From contig NZ_JAUFQG010000004.1 in assembly GCF_030409605.1 (NCBI RefSeq), positions 540,430 to 604,429 of the forward strand: a DNA stretch of 64,000 bases, written 5' to 3'. This document shows positions 2,471-35,331 of the stretch, piece by piece; positions within the stretch are counted from its first letter, which is position 1; every line of letters begins with the position of its first letter. The notes under the pieces were generated by a model, which saw only the letters and a list, made by a program, of their open reading frames with translations, was not told where the DNA came from and searched no databases. Origin of the DNA: Simiduia curdlanivorans. Its GTDB lineage: Bacteria; Pseudomonadota; Gammaproteobacteria; Pseudomonadales; Cellvibrionaceae. Made by a program: the position numbers and the translations under genes.

Positions 2471-2989
2471 TCAATCGGCTTTCAGCAGTTCGACAAGTTT
2501 ATTCACCGTATTTAAGTTGCGCGCCGTAGTAGGCACACCTAAGCAGGCCTCTACTTTGGCCGCTAATTTAGAGCGGCCTATACCATCGGGTGCATGCAAG
2601 TAAAATACCTTCCCCACTAGCTCATAGCGCTCAGTTACCGCGGCAAGACTTTGCAAGCGTTCGGCATCTAACCTTGGCGCGGTATTGCAAAAGTAGAAAT
2701 GCAAGCTTTTACCGTCTTCGGTTGTAAACGGATTACGTTTCACCGTGTTTAGAAATTCCGCTTCGCTCAGCGACATAATCGCTGGCACAAACCCAAACCG
2801 CCGCTCAATCATGTGCGACAGTTTATCATCTGGCCGCTGTGCAGCGCTCAGCACGACGTTACCGCTCTGAATATAGGTTTTCACATTTTGGTAATGTTCA
2901 GCGTCCAACAACTCGCACAAGGCCTTCATAGGCAAAGTGTTTTTTCCACCCACATTAATGCCGCGCAACAAGATCACGTACTTTTTCAT
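2471..2989 (-). CDS. DUF1697 family protein
   Basis: 172-aa ORF convergent with rsmE. The start ILLRGINVGGKN is the signature N-terminus of the DUF1697 family. Confidence 0.65.
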   Translation of the reverse strand: MKKYVILLRGINVGGKNTLPMKALCELLDAEHYQNVKTYIQSGNVVLSAAQRPDDKLSHMIERRFGFVPAIMSLSEAEFLNTVKRNPFTTEDGKSLHFYFCNTAPRLDAERLQSLAAVTERYELVGKVFYLHAPDGIGRSKLAAKVEACLGVPTTARNLNTVNKLVELLKAD

Positions 2990-3050
2990 TTGCCCACCAA
3001 GATCGGGATAACATCTAAAGCGCTAGCCGATTTCAAAAAAACAATGCCGG

Positions 3051-25146: not shown

Positions 25147-25695
25147 TTATTTATCGGCGGCGTAGGGATCATCGGCAAAAAGATAGGCGCGCAGTACCGA
25201 TCTATCTTCTTGCTGCATCAACCATTCGCGAAAATTCTTTAGCTTCTGGTAGCGCTCGGTACCAAATTTCTTTTCATATAAATCGCTAAAGGTCTGCTTG
25301 GCGTGGTCGGCGCGAATTTGTTTTTGCCATTGCCGCGTCAGCACTTTGTTGAGCGAACCGGCAAGTTTATGCTCTTTCAACAACTCCCACTCGCCCTTAT
25401 CCAACCAGATGCCGCCCACTGCCGGGCTATAATCCAATTTGTGTTGAATATCAGCCGCCAATTTAATTTTTTGCATGATGGCACCAGACACGGGGCAAAG
25501 CATCGCCGATGCAGTTTCCGACATTTCCATCGGCTGAGCTTCGGAGAAGTCGTGATCCGGGTGCGCCGCCAACCAAGCCACATAGTCTTCGACGAAGACC
25601 CAATTACCCAAGCAATGATGACAGGTGTGGGCGCGAAACAACCCGTCGATAAAGCTCGGCCGTAACTCACCCTGCTTGCAACTTGTACACTTCAT
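25147..25695 (-). CDS. zinc-ribbon protein (CxxC..CxxC + CPxxG), last gene of PspA/flotillin/giant-ATPase operon
   Basis: 182 aa: MKCTSCKQG..CHHCLGNW and a second CPVSG element. It starts 23 bp downstream of the giant gene stop on the same strand. Confidence 0.6.
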   Translation of the reverse strand: MKCTSCKQGELRPSFIDGLFRAHTCHHCLGNWVFVEDYVAWLAAHPDHDFSEAQPMEMSETASAMLCPVSGAIMQKIKLAADIQHKLDYSPAVGGIWLDKGEWELLKEHKLAGSLNKVLTRQWQKQIRADHAKQTFSDLYEKKFGTERYQKLKNFREWLMQQEDRSVLRAYLFADDPYAADK

Positions 25696-25718: not shown

Positions 25719-28700
25719 TTATTCTTTATGTTCATCGTTCTTTTTCAGAGACCGCTTATTACCCGCCGCCAAGGCGCGCAGCTGATGTGATACATCCTGC
25801 ATCTTGTCGTGGGTTTTCAAATCTATTTCTAGTTTTTTGTCCATGCTGCGCACCAGCGGGAAAATACTGTTTTCGATAGTATCGGCCAAGGCCGTTAACA
25901 TGCGATCGATACCAGGAACCGGCTGATTAATCACCTCCACTTTTGGCGCCAACTTTTCTAAGGATTTTGCGATACCCAGAATTGCTAATACTAGAGGTTC
26001 GCGCGCCGACTTCTCTGTTCTAGGCTTGGCCTGAGCCGTTACCATGGCTTCGCGCAAGGATTGAACGCTGGCCACCATATCAACCAATTGCGCTACAATT
26101 TTGCCGCCGGCATCGGCATCGTCGCCACCCATGGCTTTATTGCGCATGAAATCTTTCTTGATCGCCTGCCAGCGCTCCGCCTGCAGCTCCGTCATGTTGC
26201 CGCGCAATTCGGCCAATTTTAATAAGTTGGCCTCGGCACCGGTGGTGAGCAACTGGGCCTCACCTAAATAGTGATCGGCTATCATCTGCATCAGCTCGGC
26301 ATCGTTCATCACGGCAGAAATTTTCTCCGTCATTTTATTCATATTGCGGTAGCTACCCTGCAACTTGAACGGTGGCTCGGTGCGGTATTTGTCATCTTGC
26401 GCGGCGGAGATAATGTATTGCTGGTTAATTTTTAATACCACATCGCGCACCACCATCATTTTCTTCAAAACGCCGGTGATCTCACCAATTTCAGAACTGC
26501 TATAGGCATGGCTTAAATCTGTTGTGGCAATACTCTCGCCTTGCGCCATTTTCACCAGCTTATAAACATCGGCCATTTCCCGTGTTGCCAGCGGCGCTAA
26601 TACCGGGTTTGAGGTGAGCGAGTTTTCGATATAACTCAGCGCAAATTGCTCGTCCATACCGCCGAGAATATCGCCCAAGTTATAGATATCGGCTCGGTTA
26701 GCGAGCATATCCGGAATTTTAAATGCCTCACCCGACTCAGTGTAGGGGTTACCCGCCATCACTACGCAAAACTTCTTACCGCGCATATCGTAGGTTTTAG
26801 TCTGCTTGCGCCATACGCCTTCGATGCGCCGTGTGCCGTCGCACAAGGAAATAAATTTCTGCAAAAACTCTGGGTCTGTGTGTTGAATATCATCGAGATA
26901 CAACATCACGTTATTACCCATCTCTAAACCCAGGTTTAGTTTCACCAATTCCTGTCGCGCCGTGGCATTGGGCGCTTGCTCTGGGTCGAGTGACAGCACG
27001 TTATGGCCGAGCGACGGGCAGTTGATTTTCATAAAAATCAAACCCAGCCGATTTGCCACATACTCCATTAAGGTGGTTTTACCGTAACCCGGCGGCGAAA
27101 TCATCATCAGCAAACCCATGAGATCGGTTCGCTTAGTTTCACCAACGGTACCCATTTGCTTGGCGAGGTTGTCGCCAATTAAAGGCAGATAGGATTCATT
27201 AATGAGCCGGTTTCGAACAAAGGAGCTCAGCGGCCGCGCTTTAAATTCATGTAGCTTTAAGCCCTTGCGCTCGCGCTCAACGATAGCCTGACGCACCTTG
27301 TGGTACTGATGATAACCGGCCACCACCACGCGCCGATGGTGCGCCATGCGCAACAGAAAACTGTCTATCTCTAGACTCAAACGGCCTTGATCGAGTAGCG
27401 GGTGATCACCCAACAGTCCCTCAACGATCAATTGTAAGTCGGCCTCGGTATCGCGCCGACGTACATTTTTAGCCGCCAGCATGGCTGCAGCCTCGGGAAT
27501 AAAATGGCGCGCCTTATCACTTTTCTGATGTTCGGTCAGTGCATCGAGCCAGACGCTAATGACGCGAAGCTTCTCACCGGGGCGTTGGTCTAAATTTTCT
27601 AACACCGACTGAAATCTTGCCCACACCACGTCGTCCATGGCACTTCGCAAGCCTGCCTCTAATGCGCGCGCATACTTGCTGGATATAAACGCAAATTGAT
27701 CTCGGGCCAATTCAGCCACCAAATACTGAGCCGCGCGCTCGGTATTGTGGCCACTGCTATCAACGCCCTGCGCCTCAACCCAAAGCGACATGGCAGCGTG
27801 AACCTCCTGCTCTAAAAGCGCTATCGCTTTACCGCTGGCGAACAAGGTATTCAGTAGGGCCGCCGATTGTGCCCGTTGTTGCCACTGCTTTACCTTTGAC
27901 TGGCTTAAGCGGGTATCGTCAGCCACATCGACAAAGCTTGCCCAAAAAACCTGCGCCAAGGCGCGGCACTGCGGGTCGAAGCGCAAGAGATCTGCGGCAT
28001 CTAGCGCCGGTAAGAGCGCCTGCAGAATTTTGGTTGCATCGCTATCGTGTATGCCTTTTTCGTAACCCTCTTTGTAGCGCGGCGCGGCAAAAGCTTTGAC
28101 CAAGTTAGCCAGCTTCGCCTCATCTAACAAAGCCTCTTGCAGAATGCCTAAACTCAGCGCCTCGCTCCCCGCACGCGCCGCCTCGAGCAAACTGTAGGCG
28201 AGGTATTCACCTCGGTACACCTGCTCCGTCTCGGACTCAATATTCAACTGCCAGTAATCACTGAGTGCGTTCAGCTCGGCATCGTCTATTGGCTCGTAGT
28301 AATCCGTGCCCAAGAGATGAATATTGAGTTTATTATTTCGCGGAATAATGGTCAGGTCTAACTCCTGGGTATTGACCGAAAAACGGTGCCGCGGGCCCAA
28401 TTTTATAACACTGCCACCCGCTTCAAAGATGTCGCTTTTATCGCGCAGCGAACGCAGCGCCTGTTCTTTTACCGCCTTAAAGCGCGCATCCACATCATCG
28501 GCTTTGACGGCGCTATTGAGCTGGCGCAAGCGCTCGGAAAATTCCCGCACTTTTTGCACCAAGGCATCGGAGGCAAAGTAGGTGTTTAGCTCGTCTTTAT
28601 CGGTGAACTTTAGGGTTCGCTTTTCGATGCTCGATAACACTCGACTGGCCGCGTCTACAACCGACTGTGCCTTTTGCTGCTGCTCATCCAATAACTTCTG

Positions 28701-30995
28701 CTTATGGCCCTCAAAGGCCTCATAAACCTCTTCCCGCTTGCCAATAATCTCAGTCAAAAATTGATCGTACTCGCTAAACTGGCTTTCGAATTCTTCTAAC
28801 TGCACCAGTAGTCGCGATAACTGCTCATCGCACTTTTCCGGTGTATCGGCCAAACTCAGGGCGTTGTTAATACTTTGGCTAAACAGTTTAAATTGGGCAC
28901 CAAACTGCGCCGTTGCCTCGGTCGAGCCTAGGCTTTTATATTTGTTGCGCGCGATAGCGCGGCTTTGATTGAGCAAGCCGTAAACTTCAGAAATCGCATC
29001 GACGATACGGGTCGTCACGGTGGCGTCATCACCTTGCAAGGTACTCATGAGTTCGGTTAACAAATCGAGCTCAGCCGCTGCTTGATCAATATTGTCAATG
29101 CAGGGTGTGACCTCCGCCCTCACCTCGGCTTGATCAACCGCGGCCTGAACCCCTTGAATTTTTTCGTGATAGGGTTGCAGGGCTTTTTCATCGGCGAGAA
29201 AGCCTAAGGTACGCTCACTCAAATTCGCTTCTGCTGACTCTAGCTCCTTGGTCAACGTTTCAATAATCTTGAGGTCGATATAACGATAACTGGAGATACT
29301 AACTAAATGCCCGCGCTGGCGGCGCAACTTAGTCAGCATCGAAACAAATTGATCAGCACTCTGCCATTCGTCTGGCCGCACCGCGCGCAACAGTTCCACC
29401 TGGGTTTGTTTTGCGTCGGTTAACGCTTTGCTCGATTGCAGCTGAATAGATTGAACCTTTTCAAACTCATCAATCACTAGCTCGGCGGTCGCGGAAACAT
29501 CTTTCAACACCTGCGCCAAGTCACCCAGCGCTTCGTCGGACACCCAATAGTGTTCGTCGAATATTTTTTTCGCCGCTAGATTTAGCTCTTCATAAATTTT
29601 TGCGGACACCTCGGGATTCTCGATCAACCGAGTAAGACTTAATAGATTTGAAACACCGCGCACCAGCTCTGAGTTACCTATTTTACCGAAAGCGGTTTTG
29701 CTAGGCGGTAGTTTACTGGCGAATTCAGCGCTAAAGAAGGGCGTGGTCCAAATTTGCATGGGATGCACCCGCGTCGGTTCATCGCCGGCGCTGAATATCA
29801 CCAAGGTGCCATCATCGGCCAAGGCGTAACCGTGGCAAGTTATCGGATTTTTTAGGCTCTTCTCGATCATATTGTAGGAGAGCAATACCAAAACACCGTT
29901 GACCGGCTCATAAAAAACATAGAGCACATCTTCGCCGTTGGGCGAGCGCACGACGCGTTTAATTTTTAGGCCAATGGTGCGCTCTTCGAAAGTTTTATGC
30001 TCGCCAGTTTGTAAGTAGTAACCACCGGGGAAAATAATCCCGTGATCCTCTGGCAGCTGCACGCAAGACATGCCAATGGCGTCTATACGAAGCACTTTTT
30101 GCGTCAGGGTGTTATAAACAAAGTGGCGCCAAAGCTCTTCGCGGTAAGGCTTAACTTTCAACAATATCAAGGCACCTACACGGGCATAGGAAATATCGGC
30201 ATCGTCTAAGGATTGGGTTTTATCTTCAACTGGCTCGCGGTAGATACCTAAGCCATCTTCGGTATTATTTTCCACCTTGATGGTAAGATCGCCGCCCACG
30301 GTTTCCACAAACACGGTGTCTTCAATATTGACATGTGGGTGTTTGCCGTGCACGCTGTGTTCGCGCGTAGTTTCTATCCAGGTAAAATCAAAAGCCGGCG
30401 GCAGAGAGATATCGCGCTCACCACGGTTATCAATATATTTTACGGTTTTACCATCGGCCGATATGGACCAGCGAAATACGCGCAGGTCATCTAATCGCTC
30501 GCCAATCTGAAAACCCGCCAGTAATTTTCCGTCTTTAACACTTAGCTCGATTAACTTAGTGTGCTTGTAGTAGCGATATAGCTCGCTGAAATCGTTGACG
30601 AAGCCTCTATCGGCTAAAAAAGTTCCCTCGGCGGAAACCTGCTCGAGATCTGTATCGGAATCATTGGAACCCAATTTGAATAGAGAAAAAACGTCTTCGA
30701 CTGCGGTCTCTTTCTTTAAGCCAATGAAAACGTTGTAGCCGAATAAAAGATAATCCCCAACTTGGACGATATCTCTTGGCACACAGTTATTGACCGTTCG
30801 AATGCGAGTGCGGGCGCTGACGGCCATGTCAGAGCTGCCGAACTCCTGCAAGCGGCGCTCATTGATAGTGTTAGCAATCTGCTTTAGCGATTGCCCTTGT
30901 GCAACCAGACGCTTGCGGATGATCTCGTAGGCACCGCCCTGCGCAACCGCATCGTCAACTACACCGTCTTGCGCCGGCTTCGCAGCTTCGCTCAT
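25719..30995 (-). CDS. 1758-aa multidomain protein with C-terminal AAA_5 (MoxR/McrB/dynein-type) ATPase module; N-terminal ~1150 aa uncharacterised
   Basis: Uninterrupted 5.3-kb ORF. Motifs: Walker A ISPPGYGKTTL, Walker B VMLYLDDIQH, sensor-1 CVVMAGNPY, Arg finger/sensor-2 MLANRADIYN. The central region is predicted coiled coil (QLQSSKALTDAKQTQVELL...). Often auto-annotated 'DNA repair ATPase' without support. Confidence 0.85.
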   Translation of the reverse strand: MSEAAKPAQDGVVDDAVAQGGAYEIIRKRLVAQGQSLKQIANTINERRLQEFGSSDMAVSARTRIRTVNNCVPRDIVQVGDYLLFGYNVFIGLKKETAVEDVFSLFKLGSNDSDTDLEQVSAEGTFLADRGFVNDFSELYRYYKHTKLIELSVKDGKLLAGFQIGERLDDLRVFRWSISADGKTVKYIDNRGERDISLPPAFDFTWIETTREHSVHGKHPHVNIEDTVFVETVGGDLTIKVENNTEDGLGIYREPVEDKTQSLDDADISYARVGALILLKVKPYREELWRHFVYNTLTQKVLRIDAIGMSCVQLPEDHGIIFPGGYYLQTGEHKTFEERTIGLKIKRVVRSPNGEDVLYVFYEPVNGVLVLLSYNMIEKSLKNPITCHGYALADDGTLVIFSAGDEPTRVHPMQIWTTPFFSAEFASKLPPSKTAFGKIGNSELVRGVSNLLSLTRLIENPEVSAKIYEELNLAAKKIFDEHYWVSDEALGDLAQVLKDVSATAELVIDEFEKVQSIQLQSSKALTDAKQTQVELLRAVRPDEWQSADQFVSMLTKLRRQRGHLVSISSYRYIDLKIIETLTKELESAEANLSERTLGFLADEKALQPYHEKIQGVQAAVDQAEVRAEVTPCIDNIDQAAAELDLLTELMSTLQGDDATVTTRIVDAISEVYGLLNQSRAIARNKYKSLGSTEATAQFGAQFKLFSQSINNALSLADTPEKCDEQLSRLLVQLEEFESQFSEYDQFLTEIIGKREEVYEAFEGHKQKLLDEQQQKAQSVVDAASRVLSSIEKRTLKFTDKDELNTYFASDALVQKVREFSERLRQLNSAVKADDVDARFKAVKEQALRSLRDKSDIFEAGGSVIKLGPRHRFSVNTQELDLTIIPRNNKLNIHLLGTDYYEPIDDAELNALSDYWQLNIESETEQVYRGEYLAYSLLEAARAGSEALSLGILQEALLDEAKLANLVKAFAAPRYKEGYEKGIHDSDATKILQALLPALDAADLLRFDPQCRALAQVFWASFVDVADDTRLSQSKVKQWQQRAQSAALLNTLFASGKAIALLEQEVHAAMSLWVEAQGVDSSGHNTERAAQYLVAELARDQFAFISSKYARALEAGLRSAMDDVVWARFQSVLENLDQRPGEKLRVISVWLDALTEHQKSDKARHFIPEAAAMLAAKNVRRRDTEADLQLIVEGLLGDHPLLDQGRLSLEIDSFLLRMAHHRRVVVAGYHQYHKVRQAIVERERKGLKLHEFKARPLSSFVRNRLINESYLPLIGDNLAKQMGTVGETKRTDLMGLLMMISPPGYGKTTLMEYVANRLGLIFMKINCPSLGHNVLSLDPEQAPNATARQELVKLNLGLEMGNNVMLYLDDIQHTDPEFLQKFISLCDGTRRIEGVWRKQTKTYDMRGKKFCVVMAGNPYTESGEAFKIPDMLANRADIYNLGDILGGMDEQFALSYIENSLTSNPVLAPLATREMADVYKLVKMAQGESIATTDLSHAYSSSEIGEITGVLKKMMVVRDVVLKINQQYIISAAQDDKYRTEPPFKLQGSYRNMNKMTEKISAVMNDAELMQMIADHYLGEAQLLTTGAEANLLKLAELRGNMTELQAERWQAIKKDFMRNKAMGGDDADAGGKIVAQLVDMVASVQSLREAMVTAQAKPRTEKSAREPLVLAILGIAKSLEKLAPKVEVINQPVPGIDRMLTALADTIENSIFPLVRSMDKKLEIDLKTHDKMQDVSHQLRALAAGNKRSLKKNDEHKE

Positions 30996-31052: not shown

Positions 31053-32948
31053 TTACGCGCTTGGCGTGTCTTTGTTGACGTCCGCAACCGGCGTATCTAC
31101 CAAGCGATGCAATATCGCCTGTAGGGTTCCGCTCTTTTCAGCCAAGCCATCAATGGCCTTGCCGATGGACAGAGACTTAGCAAAGTTATTGAAGAAATGA
31201 TCTTCACCGCCGACGATATCGATCTTGGCTTTCTGCAGCGCAGTCGCCAAGACTTCGGCATTTTCTTTAGCGATTTCCTTACCTGCATCGATAGACGCCA
31301 AGGCCTCTTTCAATGCGGTTTCCAGCCCCATGCGGAACTCTTCGTGGGCACGCGCCTGTGCGCTCATGCTATTCATGGCGCCGAACTTCTCAACCAGGCC
31401 ATCGGCCTCGGCTTTAAATTGCTCGCGCGTCACTTCGGCATTGGCCATACCGATTTGGCGTGCAGCGCGCGCCTCAGAATCGCCTTTGGCGCCGATAACT
31501 TCGGCTTGCGCTTTACCCGTACCCAAGAGCGCATCGGCTTCCGCATCGCCTTTGGCGCGAATAACATTGGCTTCAGCAAGCCCTGGCGCTGCGCGCTCGG
31601 CCTGCACGCCTTCCGCCATTTTCTTCTTCGCCTCAGCTTCTTTAGTAGTCGCTTCCAATTGCGCTTGCGCTAACAAGGTAATCTCTACCGACTTATGCTT
31701 GGCGGCCTGCTCTTCAGCTTCAGCGGCTTTCACCTGCTTCACTTTGTCTTCTTCAGCCAGCGCTTCCGCTGCCAACACTTTAGTTTGCTTGGCGCGATCG
31801 GCCTCGGACACTTCGCGCACTTCTTTAATGCGCTCTTCTTCGATGGCCACAGTCTTATCGACAGCGACGCGCTCGCGAATCACATTGGCAATTTCTTTCT
31901 TCTCAACTTCTACCGCTTTTTCAGCTTCTATGCGTTGAATTTCAACTTCGCGCTCGCGGGCAACAATTTCCAGATCTCGCGCTCGGGTTACTTTTTCTTC
32001 TTCGATAGCCACAGCGCGTAAACGATTCTGCGTGGCCACCTCGATTTCGCGCTGTTGATTCTCGGTTTTAACCGCAAGATCTTGATCGACCTGAATGGTA
32101 GTAGACTGAGCCCTGAGGCGCTCTTCTTCCTGCACCTTTTTTGTTTCCGCCTCTTCGCGCGCCCGAATGGTGGCGATTTCGCGCTCTTGCTTGGCTTCGG
32201 CATCAGACTGCTGACGCTCAAGCGCGAGCATGGCCTCAACGGTTTCCACGTTCTTCTTTTTGATTGCCAATTCTTCATCGCGCTCTAGCACATTGGTGCG
32301 CACATTCTGCACCGCGGTGAGCTCGGTAATTTTCTTGATGCCCTCGGCATCCATGATGTTGCTAGGGTCGAGGGATGATTTCGGCGTTTGCTCTAGGTAG
32401 TCGATGGCCACATCTTCGAGCACATAGCCATTTAAATCCTCGCCAATGACCGCGACAATTTTTTCGCGGAACTGCATTCTGTTTTCAAACAGATTAACGA
32501 ACTCAATTTGCTTACCCACGGTTTTCAAAGCTTCGGAAAACTTGGCATTAAACAGTAAGTTAACCGCTTCGCGATCTGAAGCACGACTAGCGCCGATGGA
32601 CTTGGCCACCTTCAACACATCTTCCGCGGTTTCGTTAACCCGAAGATAGAAGGCAACGGTAATATCGGCGCGCATATTGTCGGCACAAATTAAGCCGTCT
32701 TTGCCACGCCTATCCACTTCCAAGGTAATCAATGAAATTTTCATCAATTCCTTTTTGTGAATAATCGGGTAGACCAGTGCACCGGTAAAATGCACTTTCG
32801 GCTTCGGACTCATATCGTTGACGATAAGTGCCACACCTTGCTCCACCTTTACATAAAAGGCTTTAAAGAGCGCCGCTAGCCCCATGAGAATTACAAAGAC
32901 TATCCCTACACCCGAAAGAATCGGCATGAGCACTGAAAGATCAGCCAT
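31053..32948 (-). CDS. flotillin/SPFH (band 7) family protein, YqiK-like, with long EA-rich coiled-coil
   Basis: 631 aa: N-terminal TM helix, SPFH domain (QGVALIVNDMSP... DNMRADITVAFYLRV), ~250 aa of E/A/K/R heptad-like repeats, and a C-terminal flotillin tail. Confidence 0.85.
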   Translation of the reverse strand: MADLSVLMPILSGVGIVFVILMGLAALFKAFYVKVEQGVALIVNDMSPKPKVHFTGALVYPIIHKKELMKISLITLEVDRRGKDGLICADNMRADITVAFYLRVNETAEDVLKVAKSIGASRASDREAVNLLFNAKFSEALKTVGKQIEFVNLFENRMQFREKIVAVIGEDLNGYVLEDVAIDYLEQTPKSSLDPSNIMDAEGIKKITELTAVQNVRTNVLERDEELAIKKKNVETVEAMLALERQQSDAEAKQEREIATIRAREEAETKKVQEEERLRAQSTTIQVDQDLAVKTENQQREIEVATQNRLRAVAIEEEKVTRARDLEIVAREREVEIQRIEAEKAVEVEKKEIANVIRERVAVDKTVAIEEERIKEVREVSEADRAKQTKVLAAEALAEEDKVKQVKAAEAEEQAAKHKSVEITLLAQAQLEATTKEAEAKKKMAEGVQAERAAPGLAEANVIRAKGDAEADALLGTGKAQAEVIGAKGDSEARAARQIGMANAEVTREQFKAEADGLVEKFGAMNSMSAQARAHEEFRMGLETALKEALASIDAGKEIAKENAEVLATALQKAKIDIVGGEDHFFNNFAKSLSIGKAIDGLAEKSGTLQAILHRLVDTPVADVNKDTPSA

Positions 32949-32990: not shown

Positions 32991-33683
32991 TCAATTACCG
33001 GAAAATTCAGCTTCCGAAATGACTTTATAAATATTTGTCGCAACCTCGTGCTCTAATAATACCACGCGATCACCCTTCACAAATTCAACACCCGGCTCGC
33101 TGCGCACCTTAAGCAGCAAACCCGCGCCACCGTCCGACAAAATCGCCTCGCCCATTTGGCTATTAACCACTGAGCTACGCACAACCGCCGTTTGCCCGAT
33201 AATAAATTGCACCGTTTGCTGGCGTGCATTTTTAAATAAGGGGCGGAGCGGCTTTATCACCTGACTGGTGATCATCACCGCAGCATACAGGGAAGCGAAA
33301 AGCACCGGCAAACCGAGCAAATAGCGCAAAAAACCATCTGGCACCCAACCAAACAGGAAGTGCACAAGGTAATAGCAGACCAGCCAGCCGAATAGTGCGA
33401 TCAGCGACACGATAATGGTGACAGGTACACCCTGAAGACCGAACTTCAACATCAAGGCGGCCAGTACATCGGGGGTTGAGTGACTGCTATCGGCATTGAT
33501 ATCTAGGTCGCCGTCCATATCCGGCACATCGAAATCGAGCATATCAATATCGACGAAACCCAAGACCGCAACCAGCCAATACAGCAGGCATAAAATTAGA
33601 AAGAAGCTAAAAATAGCGGTCGGGAAAGACGCTAAATTTTGATAAAAGGGGTCCATTTTATCGGAAAGTAGTATTGCGAACAT
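32991..33683 (-). CDS. YqiJ-like inner-membrane protein with NfeD-type OB-fold C-terminus
   Basis: 230 aa with 3-4 TM helices, an acidic loop (DIDMLDFDVPDMDGDLD) and a C-terminal beta-rich segment (GQTAVVRSSVV...LLLKVRSEPGVEFVKGDRVVLLE), as in NfeD partners of flotillins. Confidence 0.65.
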   Translation of the reverse strand: MFAILLSDKMDPFYQNLASFPTAIFSFFLILCLLYWLVAVLGFVDIDMLDFDVPDMDGDLDINADSSHSTPDVLAALMLKFGLQGVPVTIIVSLIALFGWLVCYYLVHFLFGWVPDGFLRYLLGLPVLFASLYAAVMITSQVIKPLRPLFKNARQQTVQFIIGQTAVVRSSVVNSQMGEAILSDGGAGLLLKVRSEPGVEFVKGDRVVLLEHEVATNIYKVISEAEFSGN

Positions 33684-33756: not shown

Positions 33757-34458
33757 CTATGCCTTCTTATTTTTTAGCCGCTCGAGCACATCGGCTGCAC
33801 TGGCGCCACTGGAGGCAATACCTGCCGCCTCTAATTTGGCCTGCAATGATACATCAGAATCTTCCTGTGCCAACTCCGAAGCGGCGGCCATTTGTGCCGA
33901 CTTCAGCTCTTGGCGCTCTTTAATGCGCTCGAGCGAGTCCATGGCGGTGCGCATTTTGGAGTTTGAGCCGCTGTGGCGCTCGGCCACTGCCGCCTGCGCA
34001 CGCTGGACATTATCCGTGGCTTTTACCGTATCCACCTGTTGCTTCAAGCGCTTAAGGTTTTGCTCAGTCTGCTTAATCGCCGCGCGTAGCTTGTCGGCAT
34101 TGGCGGCATAGGCCTGCACTGACTCTTGCTCCTGCTTTAGCTGGTTTTCAAAATCGGCAATTTTACCAGCCACTTCCAGCGCTAAAGCCTCATCCGACTT
34201 GTCTAGCGCCTTAACCGCATAAGCTTCGTGCTCTTCAACCTTTTTCTGCAAGCCGGCCACTTTCTGCTCGGCCAACTTTTGACGGGCAATAATCTCTGCC
34301 AAACTATCCTTTGAAAGCTTCAAGCCCTCAGAGGCATCGCGCACCTCCTGATCGAGAATTCGCAACGCTTGACTGTCGACAATCGCCTCGCCCGCTTCAT
34401 TTACGCCACCGCGCAACGCGGTCATCATCTTCGCCCAAATATTCATATTTTTCTCCAA
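33757..34458 (-). CDS. PspA/IM30-family protein (YjfJ-like; bacterial ESCRT-III superfamily)
   Basis: 233 aa, all-helical coiled coil. The N-terminus MNIWAKMMTALRGGVNEAGEAIVDSQALRILDQEVRDA is collinear with E. coli YjfJ/PspA family starts. The start may be Met5. Confidence 0.85.
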   Translation of the reverse strand: MEKNMNIWAKMMTALRGGVNEAGEAIVDSQALRILDQEVRDASEGLKLSKDSLAEIIARQKLAEQKVAGLQKKVEEHEAYAVKALDKSDEALALEVAGKIADFENQLKQEQESVQAYAANADKLRAAIKQTEQNLKRLKQQVDTVKATDNVQRAQAAVAERHSGSNSKMRTAMDSLERIKERQELKSAQMAAASELAQEDSDVSLQAKLEAAGIASSGASAADVLERLKNKKA

Positions 34459-34468
34459 TTCGCTAAAA

Positions 34469-35092
34469 TTAATTAAGCAAATGCTCAGCGTAAGCTTCTG
34501 TTGCCTGAATCACATTGCTCGCCAACACTTCAATTTCAAAGATAATATTCTGCAGCGCCGAGGCCGAACTGAGCGCACCAAACATGTGGTAGTAATCGCC
34601 CTCGGCGCCCAAATTATCTAAACTTATGGTCGATAGCGGAAAGTACTTGTGGGTGCGCAAAACCATTTCATTAAACGCCGCCGTATCTTTAACTTCGCTC
34701 ACCGACCACAACAGGGATTCGACGATGATCTGCTCGCCCACAACCGTTAAGAAAACCGGCAAATCGCCATACTCTTTCATAACAATATGCAACGCCGGTT
34801 CGACGCCGTCGATCAACTCGACACTGGCTCGACGCTGCTCGCTGAATAAATCACTCTCTTGCAAAGCTGCGTAGAGGGTGGCCGTTGTCCAAGCGTGTAA
34901 TTCCTGCATAAACACTTCTCCTTTCGTCATTTCTACTTCGCCCGGCAGCCGCAGCAACTTTTCATATTGCAAAAGTAACTTGCTGTGCTTGGGGAGAATC
35001 CAAACTTCCTTTTTAACCAGCCCCTGCTCGCGCAGCCGCTGGCGATACTCTCGTTGATAATGTGCAGATGATTTAGGCTTCATAAGGGTCAC
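34469..35092 (-). CDS. DUF2170 (YjfI-like) protein
   Basis: 207 aa encoded 10 bp upstream of the PspA-like gene. The listed start is GTG; an ATG at aa 4 (~35083) is the more likely start. Confidence 0.65.
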   Translation of the reverse strand: MTLMKPKSSAHYQREYRQRLREQGLVKKEVWILPKHSKLLLQYEKLLRLPGEVEMTKGEVFMQELHAWTTATLYAALQESDLFSEQRRASVELIDGVEPALHIVMKEYGDLPVFLTVVGEQIIVESLLWSVSEVKDTAAFNEMVLRTHKYFPLSTISLDNLGAEGDYYHMFGALSSASALQNIIFEIEVLASNVIQATEAYAEHLLN

Positions 35093-35099
35093 AATAATT

Positions 35100-35158
35100 A
35101 ATTACATGTAAGAAGGCAAGAAAATTACATGTAATATTTAGACAAATTACATGTAAGC
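35100..35158. promoter_or_regulatory. three copies of the perfect palindrome ATTACATGTAAT in the promoter/leader of the YjfI-PspA-flotillin-ATPase operon
   Basis: aattaATTACATGTAAgaaggcaagaaaATTACATGTAATatttagacaaATTACATGTAAgcgc lies 8-70 bp upstream of the operon start. Centre-to-centre spacings are 24 and 22 bp. Confidence 0.5.
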
Positions 35159-35331
35159 GCTAGCTGATACCGGGGAAACCTCGCACAGAAGTATGCAAGC
35201 TATTGAAAATAAAGAGATTTATTTGAGACCCTTATTGATTATGGCAAGGCTCTGCAAGACACTAATACCCGCTTTACGCTTCGCCAATAAGGAAATTTCG
35301 CCCTCCCTAGGGTTGTGGAAGGCTCGGTTAG

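Follow-up and report, generated by a model that had tools for sequence, protein, structure and literature searches.

The window, by which we mean the whole stretch of 64,000 nucleotides of Simiduia curdlanivorans DNA that was analysed, carries a six-gene operon on the minus strand, downstream of an array of three short repeats. The genes are as follows.

34469 to 35083, minus strand: bacA, 204 aa, with an N-terminal module, a disordered linker (residues 46-66) and a DUF2170 / CesT-like domain.
33757 to 34458, minus strand: bacB, PspA/IM30 family, 55% identity to P. aeruginosa BacB.
32991 to 33683, minus strand: bacC, YqiJ-like membrane protein, 44% identity to P. aeruginosa BacC.
31053 to 32948, minus strand: bacD, called Band-7/flotillin-like, 631 aa, 70% identity to P. 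aeruginosa BacD.
25719 to 30995, minus strand: bacE, DUF3686, DUF7902 and AAA+ ATPase (Pfam), 1758 aa.
25147 to 25695, minus strand: bacF, zinc-ribbon protein (Pfam, Zn_ribbon).

The BacA protein of the window passed the NCBIfam equivalog model NF050185 ('biofilm formation regulator BacA') with 309.1 bits against a cut-off of 300, and the match spans model positions 1-202 of 206. BacB, BacC and BacD were compared directly with the P. aeruginosa proteins, and BacE and BacF were assigned by Pfam only. The downstream gene order (PspA-like, YqiJ-like, Band-7/flotillin-like, AAA+ ATPase and zinc-ribbon) is as in P. aeruginosa. Based on the NF050185 match and the identities of BacB, BacC and BacD, the operon is assigned by sequence as the orthologue of P. 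aeruginosa bacABCDEF (Wallart et al. 2024). The same gene neighbourhood was listed by Ravi et al. as a CesT/Tir-PspA-Band-7-AAA+ cluster. No Pfam family matched the BacD of the window, even at E = 10; the flotillin label that the initial annotation gave to this gene thus finds no counterpart in Pfam, and the Band-7/flotillin name comes from the literature only, through orthology with BacD. The longest bacB reading frame starts at a TTG (MEKNMNIW...), and an ATG four codons downstream (about 34446, MNIWAKM...) aligns with P. aeruginosa BacB. This ATG is probably the real bacB start.

Operons of the bac type, with PspA, flotillin and AAA+ genes, are widespread in Gammaproteobacteria and are linked to biofilm formation and virulence in P. 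aeruginosa. The sole proposal in print for their regulation is a sigma-54 promoter together with a protein-protein mechanism.

The array before bacA

The features of the bacA promoter region are given below, from the start codon outwards.

35081 to 35083, minus strand: ATG start codon of bacA, without a Shine-Dalgarno sequence.
35091 to 35096, minus strand: -10-like hexamer TATTGT, ending 7 nt before the ATG; TAnnnT in all orthologues.
35102 to 35111: O1, putative proximal operator core TTACATGTAA, centred at about -23 from the A of the bacA ATG, inside the 17-bp -35/-10 spacer.
35114 to 35119, minus strand: -35-like hexamer TTGCCT, a consensus match only; TTGACx in many orthologous promoters.
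35125 to 35134: O2, putative middle operator core, with its flanks ATTACATGTAAT, centred at about -46, just upstream of the -35-like hexamer.
35147 to 35156: O3, putative distal operator core TTACATGTAA, centred at about -68.

The unit common to the three copies is the 12-mer AATTACATGTAA (35100-35111, 35123-35134 and 35145-35156), and the dyad-symmetric core is the 10-mer TTACATGTAA at the positions of O1, O2 and O3. The initial annotation described three perfect 12-bp palindromes spaced 24 and 22 bp apart. Three copies are indeed present, as copies of the 12-mer; the perfect 12-bp palindrome ATTACATGTAAT is found in the middle copy only (35124-35135), and the outer two copies are ATTACATGTAAG. 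From copy to copy, 23 bp and then 22 bp were measured. In the 64 kb, 4 exact occurrences of the 11-mer ATTACATGTAA were counted, one at each of the three positions and one more where the middle copy is read on the reverse strand; shuffled sequences gave an expectation of 0.03. When one mismatch was allowed in the 10-mer core, the three array copies were the only matches in the window. The array is far beyond chance.

The distance from the array to the gene depends on the start codon. An in-frame GTG at 35092 lies 7-8 nt from the array end, in agreement with the distance of about 8 bp given earlier. The conserved bacA start is the ATG at 35083, and the array ends 16 nt before it. NCBI's own 204-aa protein of S. 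curdlanivorans, which is identical to the BacA of the window, also starts at this ATG. The GTG is probably not the real start. Both promoter hexamers of the window are weak, and neither the TTGCCT -35 nor the TATTGT -10 was listed by a stricter promoter scan of the window. A 13-nt inverted repeat (35082-35094 and 35223-35235, 92% complementary), by which the start region could pair in a read-through RNA, was also considered. Since it is not conserved in S. litorea or in the other loci, it is probably due to chance.

Conservation of the sites and of the promoter geometry

A protein-based scan with one genome per species gave 19 bacA loci, from Simiduia, Oleispira, an alteromonad, several Pseudomonas, Ventosimonas, Marilutibacter and Thermomonas. 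In every locus with upstream sequence, two or three copies of TTACATGTAA or of a variant such as TTACATGTGA lie directly before bacA, and the same operator layout is present at P. aeruginosa bacA. For 20 protein-selected loci, 45 sites with at most one mismatch were detected in the 111-bp promoter windows and 2 in the other 130 kb, an enrichment of about 1000-fold. When the intergenic regions of S. curdlanivorans and S. litorea were compared, only the last 90 bp or so could be aligned. These form the operator/promoter block, and the three sites within it are identical in the two species.

For the geometry, 29 distinct promoters of bacA were analysed, from Simiduia, Oleispira, Pseudomonas (P. 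aeruginosa included), Ventosimonas, Marilutibacter and metagenome contigs. Two sites are present in 16 of them and three sites in 13. The equivalent of O2 was found in all 29 promoters; the third copy is confined to the 13 and occurs in none of the Pseudomonas loci. ACATGT is invariant, and the consensus is A-T[T/C]ACATGT[A/G]A-T. The centre-to-centre spacing is 22-23 bp in 33 of the 42 neighbouring pairs. In 28 of the 29 promoters, 20-24 nt separate the centre of the proximal site from the ATG. The two proximal sites flank a -35-like hexamer, often TTGACx, and a TAnnnT follows the proximal site. The spacer between these hexamers, which are consensus matches only, is 17 bp in 25 of the 29 promoters, and many orthologous promoters have near-consensus hexamers of the TTGACA/TATGGT type. 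From the end of the -10-like hexamer to the ATG, 5-8 nt were counted in 26 of the 29. The dyad sites are thus at a conserved position, inside or abutting the -35 and -10 elements. Taken together, the comparison points to a genuine, deeply conserved operator array, whose binding side is deduced comparatively.

The most divergent locus is that of Thermomonas. Its sites are TTTCATGTAA and TTACATGAAA, the start codon lies inside the second site (L019, about 2960-3000), and its BacA has TEHQR instead of AHYQR. The variant sites and the variant head may reflect co-variation of head and operator.

Repeats of a non-regulatory kind might look similar, namely a REP-like hairpin pair, a cluster of restriction or methylation targets (ACATGT) or an RNA structure in the 5' leader, and most matches of the paired motif in metagenomes belong to satellite arrays or to AT-rich hairpin pairs found at the ends of genes (see below). 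However, the spacers between the bacA sites are not mutually complementary, the -35 hexamer is at a fixed offset, and the sites keep their distance to the start codon even among distant taxa. Furthermore, an Rfam scan of the whole window matched no family, and transcription is predicted to start downstream of the sites. We regard a non-regulatory origin of the array as scarcely credible.

A site in the optimal 17-bp spacer, together with a site abutting the -35, is in sequence terms the layout of repression by promoter occlusion. The initial annotation proposed an operator array for a repressor or an activator. The operator part is in line with the conserved dyads, about two helical turns apart at the promoter, whereas the activator option is disfavoured, because the proximal site lies inside the optimal -35/-10 spacer. 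MerR-type activators also bind within promoter spacers, and the imperfect -35 and -10 hexamers of the window would suit a promoter that needs activation, by another protein or by BacA itself acting positively. However, MerR-type promoters have spacers of 19-20 bp, not the 17 bp found here, and the near-consensus hexamers of many orthologues do not suggest such a need. In addition, the levels of the Bac proteins are higher, not lower, in a bacA mutant (see below). Activation through these sites is very unlikely.

In enterobacteria, transcription of pspA depends on sigma-54. For P. aeruginosa bacA, a -24/-12 element was proposed from sequence inspection by Wallart et al. 2024 (PMC10948618), and the palindromes could then be the upstream activating sequence for an enhancer-binding protein. 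We searched for TGGCAC-N5-TTGCW. No match with up to 3 mismatches was detected upstream of either P. aeruginosa bacA start, nor one with up to 2 mismatches in the promoter of the window, and the counts of the element in the window and in P. aeruginosa were at chance level. This confirms the earlier statement that no sigma-54 element is found at the window promoter, and the search gave the same result for P. aeruginosa bacA. Moreover, the published gene model starts at an internal Met, so its 'promoter region' falls in the sequence that encodes the conserved N-terminus. With centres at -23 and -46, the sites are also too close to be an upstream activating sequence. A sigma-54 promoter at bacA is highly improbable.

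The N-terminal module of BacA and its relatives

The sites adjoin a gene whose product has an additional domain at the N-terminus.

34949 to 35083, minus strand: N-terminal module of BacA, codons 1-45 (SSAHYQREYRQRLREQGLVKKEVWILP...), proposed DNA-binding head.

The DUF2170 domain covers residues 64-202 of the 204 residues of BacA only. The crystal structure 8q8o aligns to residues 61-202, and the N-terminal module is absent from it. The construct for 8q8o begins at the internal Met of P. aeruginosa BacA, a start that appears to come from the older PA14 gene model. For PA14 bacA, a PCR product of 478 bp spanning the gene has been published.

Residues 1-45 are the most conserved part of the BacA family. 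In 56 BacA sequences, S6, Y9, Q10, R11, R14, R16, R18, G21 and L22 are invariant, as are K24, K25, E26, W28 and P31. Pairwise comparison of the module codons gave 5027 synonymous against 1824 non-synonymous differences, and this excess shows that the N-terminal region is translated. In the AlphaFold model of BacA, residues 6-19 and 31-45 are helical and residues 20-30 are extended; the disordered linker and the CesT-like fold come next. The first helix is basic.

The most recurrent Pfam match of the module is PF11455 ('Antitoxin MazE-like'), obtained for 14 of 25 N-terminal segments with a best E of 0.0035. The BacA of the window gave E = 0.065 as the full protein and 0.048 as the N-terminal segment, with 13.7-14.1 bits, below the gathering threshold of 22 bits. 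Profile-profile comparison (hhalign) of the module with PF11455 gave P = 9.6e-5 over BacA residues 4-36, at a probability of only 58%. The order of secondary structures in the model of a PF11455 antitoxin matches that of the BacA module, and the motif R..R..LR..GL....W.P is common to both. Thus, with a sub-threshold score and this 58% probability, the BacA module resembles the DNA-binding end of the PF11455 antitoxins. The monomer models consist of a helix, an extended segment and one or more helices, and the ribbon-helix-helix label is unproven for the BacA module. When the PDB was searched by sequence and by profile with the two N-terminal families, nothing credible was found, and Foldseek with the PF11455 model returned no match.

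An exhaustive search with the 50-residue module gave 71 cluster representatives, which are mostly BacA with a few small stand-alone proteins (P0415, P0417 and P0431). P0431 bridges the two families, at 8e-4 to the BacA N-terminus and 3e-4 to PF11455 (21.1 bits against the threshold of 22), and P0415 also bridges them. The genomic contexts of P0415 and P0431 were uninformative, both genes being inside operons on short contigs. Two stand-alone module proteins are encoded in tandem on one short AT-rich contig (L153, 81-266 and 361-504). Another (L154, 216-389) is in a Phage_CRI, inovirus-like replication context, and a different palindrome, AATGTGCAGT...ACTGCACATT, adjoins it. Such stand-alone modules may belong to a wider family of small proteins that bind DNA.

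Metagenome contigs were scanned with DNA only, for TTACATGTRA-N10-14-TTACATGTRA, and at least 120 loci matched. Among the 120 matches listed, 13 are directly before a bacA homologue (12, and one fragment-level match), and 4 are directly before a PF11455 antitoxin of 70-74 aa followed by a PemK/MazF toxin. In these four PF11455 and PemK operons, GTTACATGTAAC occurs twice directly upstream. About 100 of the 120 listed are unrelated, being AT-rich hairpin pairs at gene ends or satellite repeats. Since most matches are unrelated, the motif alone is not diagnostic and the paired motif was rejected as the definition of a regulon in metagenomes; its specificity is seen only in the bacA and PF11455 subsets. 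In the AT-rich contigs, pairs of the type TTTACATGTAAAG-N6-8-CTTTACATGTAAA or CCTTACATGTAAGG-loop-CCTTACATGTAAGG stand at gene ends and are unrelated to bacA (L039, L041, L043, L049, L052, L060, L067, L068, L074, L077, L088 and L096-L099, for example). They look like a REP-like or terminator-like family of repeated hairpins. Satellite-like tandem arrays were seen in L027, L032, L036, L044, L076, L085 and L087.

We also picked eight PF11455 loci by protein alone, from Burkholderia, Paraburkholderia, Rhizobium/Agrobacterium, Methylopila and four metagenome clusters. In all eight, GTTACATGTAAC or a close variant lies within about 40 bp of the start, and PF11455 promoters often carry a pair of copies at 21-24 bp from each other. 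As variants, GTTTCATGTAAC, GTGACATGTAAC and GTTGCATGTAAC were seen, and GTTACTAGTAAC occurs twice in Paraburkholderia hospita. In P. hospita, a change of Arg to His in the antitoxin helix is found with an operator variant of CATG to CTAG; this covariation failed in a second His-bearing member. The flanking bases are A...T at the bacA sites and G...C at the toxin-antitoxin sites. The GTTACATGTAAC palindrome looks like the operator of the PF11455 antitoxin family. Our literature search for the motif gave nothing relevant, and no operator binding by PF11455 proteins is reported in the literature found. As a negative control, no such site was detected upstream of E. coli yjfI, which encodes a DUF2170 domain without the N-terminal module.

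Thus, two gene families that share only the module also share the operator core. This speaks more strongly than any other observation for the module as the DNA-binding head and for a binding of BacA to its own promoter. The initial annotation had seen no obvious cognate regulator in the window; the first gene of the operon, with its conserved PF11455-related N-terminal module, is such a candidate. That first reading was right in kind and missed the cognate regulator, the strand, the true start and the promoter geometry.

The sites could instead be bound by a separate regulator from elsewhere in each genome, for example a stand-alone antitoxin of the PF11455 type or a small helix-strand-helix protein, and the BacA N-terminus would then be otherwise employed. 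Stand-alone module proteins exist, the same core motif precedes PF11455 antitoxins, and the binding of BacA to the operator is deduced from sequence comparison alone. Against this, the cis-element accompanies bacA across Cellvibrionales, Oceanospirillales, Pseudomonadales and Xanthomonadales, and the sites always adjoin a gene whose N-terminus is the related module. There is no other conserved neighbour of bacA, and the systematic difference in flanking bases separates the bacA sites from those of the toxin-antitoxin operons. We consider a separate regulator unlikely. The HDOD protein encoded upstream in the window was also rejected as the regulator, being adjacent to bacA only in Simiduia and having no DNA-binding domain in Pfam.

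Proposed autorepression and a possible second start of bacA

We consider it probable that BacA binds the palindromes and represses a sigma-70 promoter of bacABCDEF. The three palindromes would be the operator array of a sigma-70-type, probably leaderless promoter driving the operon. Each 10-bp dyad would be bound by a dimer of the N-terminal 45 residues of BacA, with the basic helix, the extended segment and the second helix. With two helical turns from one to the next, the sites would face one side of the DNA and allow cooperative binding, and the likely cooperative contact is between the dimeric CesT-like C-terminal domains, carried on flexible linkers of about 20 residues. Occupation of O1 in the spacer and of O2 abutting the -35 would exclude RNA polymerase and result in autorepression. 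A signal may enter through the CesT-like domain, with BacB/PspA as its partner, and/or through a short isoform made from an internal start. We infer the binding by BacA, the repression, the cooperativity and this route of signal entry from the sites, their geometry and their association with the module.

In the P. aeruginosa PA14 bacA::Tn mutant, BacB to BacF are increased 6- to 13.5-fold, and the authors inferred negative control (PMC10948618). The mutant is an uncomplemented MAR2xT7 insertion, and read-out from the transposon could also raise the downstream proteins. Autorepression at the palindromes is a simpler account of this proteome than the published protein-protein mechanism. A confident BacA-BacB complex was predicted by AlphaFold (PMC13092808, 2026), which suggests the CesT-like domain as the signal-input side.

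The energy of the anti-Shine-Dalgarno duplex upstream of the bacA ATG is -2.2 kcal/mol on average, equal to the background (-2.4). Judging by the geometry, with no Shine-Dalgarno sequence and a -10-like hexamer 5-8 nt before the ATG, the transcript probably starts at or next to the ATG, and the mRNA is probably leaderless. A second start is indicated within the gene.

34907 to 34923, minus strand: internal Shine-Dalgarno sequence AAAGGAG and ATG (Met59, 34909-34907), at the boundary of the linker and DUF2170.

Nearly all bacA loci have a conserved Met near residue 59, preceded at a distance of 7-11 nt by a GGAG. At this internal site, the anti-Shine-Dalgarno energy averages -8.1 kcal/mol, against a background of -2.4 +/- 2.6 with a 5th percentile of -6.9. 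The codon phase of the GGAG differs among loci (K-G-E, K-E-G, Q-E-K and others) and the linker is poorly conserved as protein; the differing phases point to selection on the nucleotides. Gene callers often place the bacA start at the internal Met, giving proteins of 145-159 aa. In the passage of PMC4066749 (2014) that cites earlier work, PA3732 is among the P. aeruginosa genes with multiple RsmA sites around the Shine-Dalgarno sequence. Since the old gene model allows no other, we infer that the Shine-Dalgarno sequence meant in that passage is the internal one of bacA. From the duplex energy, the varied GGAG phase, the starts chosen by gene callers and the RsmA listing, we give a short BacA isoform without the DNA-binding head about an even chance. 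Its role, capping the CesT-like dimer interface or competing for BacB, is speculative.

A further step is that one leaderless bacA mRNA yields two proteins, a long repressor with the head and a short CesT-like, BacB-binding form that tunes the repression. We put this forward tentatively, as possible and rather doubtful. The short form, with the CesT-like dimerisation and BacB-binding domain only, or else BacB as a toxin-like co-repressor, would tune the cooperativity of the long form. The Tn5 transposase and its inhibitor are two isoforms made through an internal translation start. The likeness, which for BacA would be purely putative, is that the short form lacks the DNA-binding N-terminus and keeps the dimerisation domain.

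Among known systems, the autoregulated type II toxin-antitoxin operons of PF11455 (DUF3018) and PemK-MazF share with bacA the core palindrome (GTTACATGTAAC against ATTACATGTAAT at bacA), usually in two promoter copies 21-24 bp apart, and the related N-terminal module; DNA binding is presumed for the product of the first gene, as proposed for bacA. They differ in that the C-terminus of BacA is a CesT/Tir-like DUF2170 domain and not a toxin-neutralising tail, that the bac operon encodes PspA, flotillin-like and AAA+ proteins and not a toxin, and that BacA is below the Pfam threshold and the flanking bases are unlike. Tandem dyads of 8-12 bp, each bound by a dimer, with cooperative promoter occlusion, are known from the MetJ/Arc/CopG ribbon-helix-helix repressors and are proposed here for bac. 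In contrast to these repressors, the modelled order in BacA is helix, extended segment and helix, not strand-helix-helix, and the bac sites are two turns apart, not abutting.

The enterobacterial Psp system (PspF, sigma-54 and PspA feedback) is similar in that an operon of the PspA family is under negative feedback by a PspA-binding protein, a likeness that for bac derives from the predicted BacA-BacB complex. It differs from bac, which is without a sigma-54 element and whose putative operator overlaps a sigma-70-type promoter with no upstream activating sequence; the candidate regulator of bac is the operon's own first gene. The bacABCDEF operon of P. aeruginosa (PMC10948618; 8q8o) has the six orthologous genes, the same operator layout and proteomics indicating negative control by BacA. 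Wallart et al. 2024 (PMC10948618) proposed a sigma-54 promoter and a purely protein-protein mechanism; only the DUF2170 part was crystallised, and the operator, the DNA-binding module and the leaderless start were not described.

The kind of system, an autoregulated operator over a promoter, is familiar. Within the literature searched, three proposals are new: the fusion of a CesT-like chaperone domain to a DNA-binding head of the antitoxin type, the control of a PspA/flotillin operon by such a protein without sigma-54, and a probable leaderless bacA start with a second, internal start. The analysis supplies a concrete cis-element and a candidate trans-factor for the bac operon, and the published structural work on BacA used the protein without its probable DNA-binding head. 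For the PF11455 antitoxin family, it gives a first operator motif, from comparative genomics. Toxin-antitoxin autoregulation and membrane-stress operons may be linked in evolution. If the two-protein reading of bacA is true, the bac operon would have a sigma-54-independent feedback circuit of the Psp type, made from the regulatory parts of a toxin-antitoxin system.
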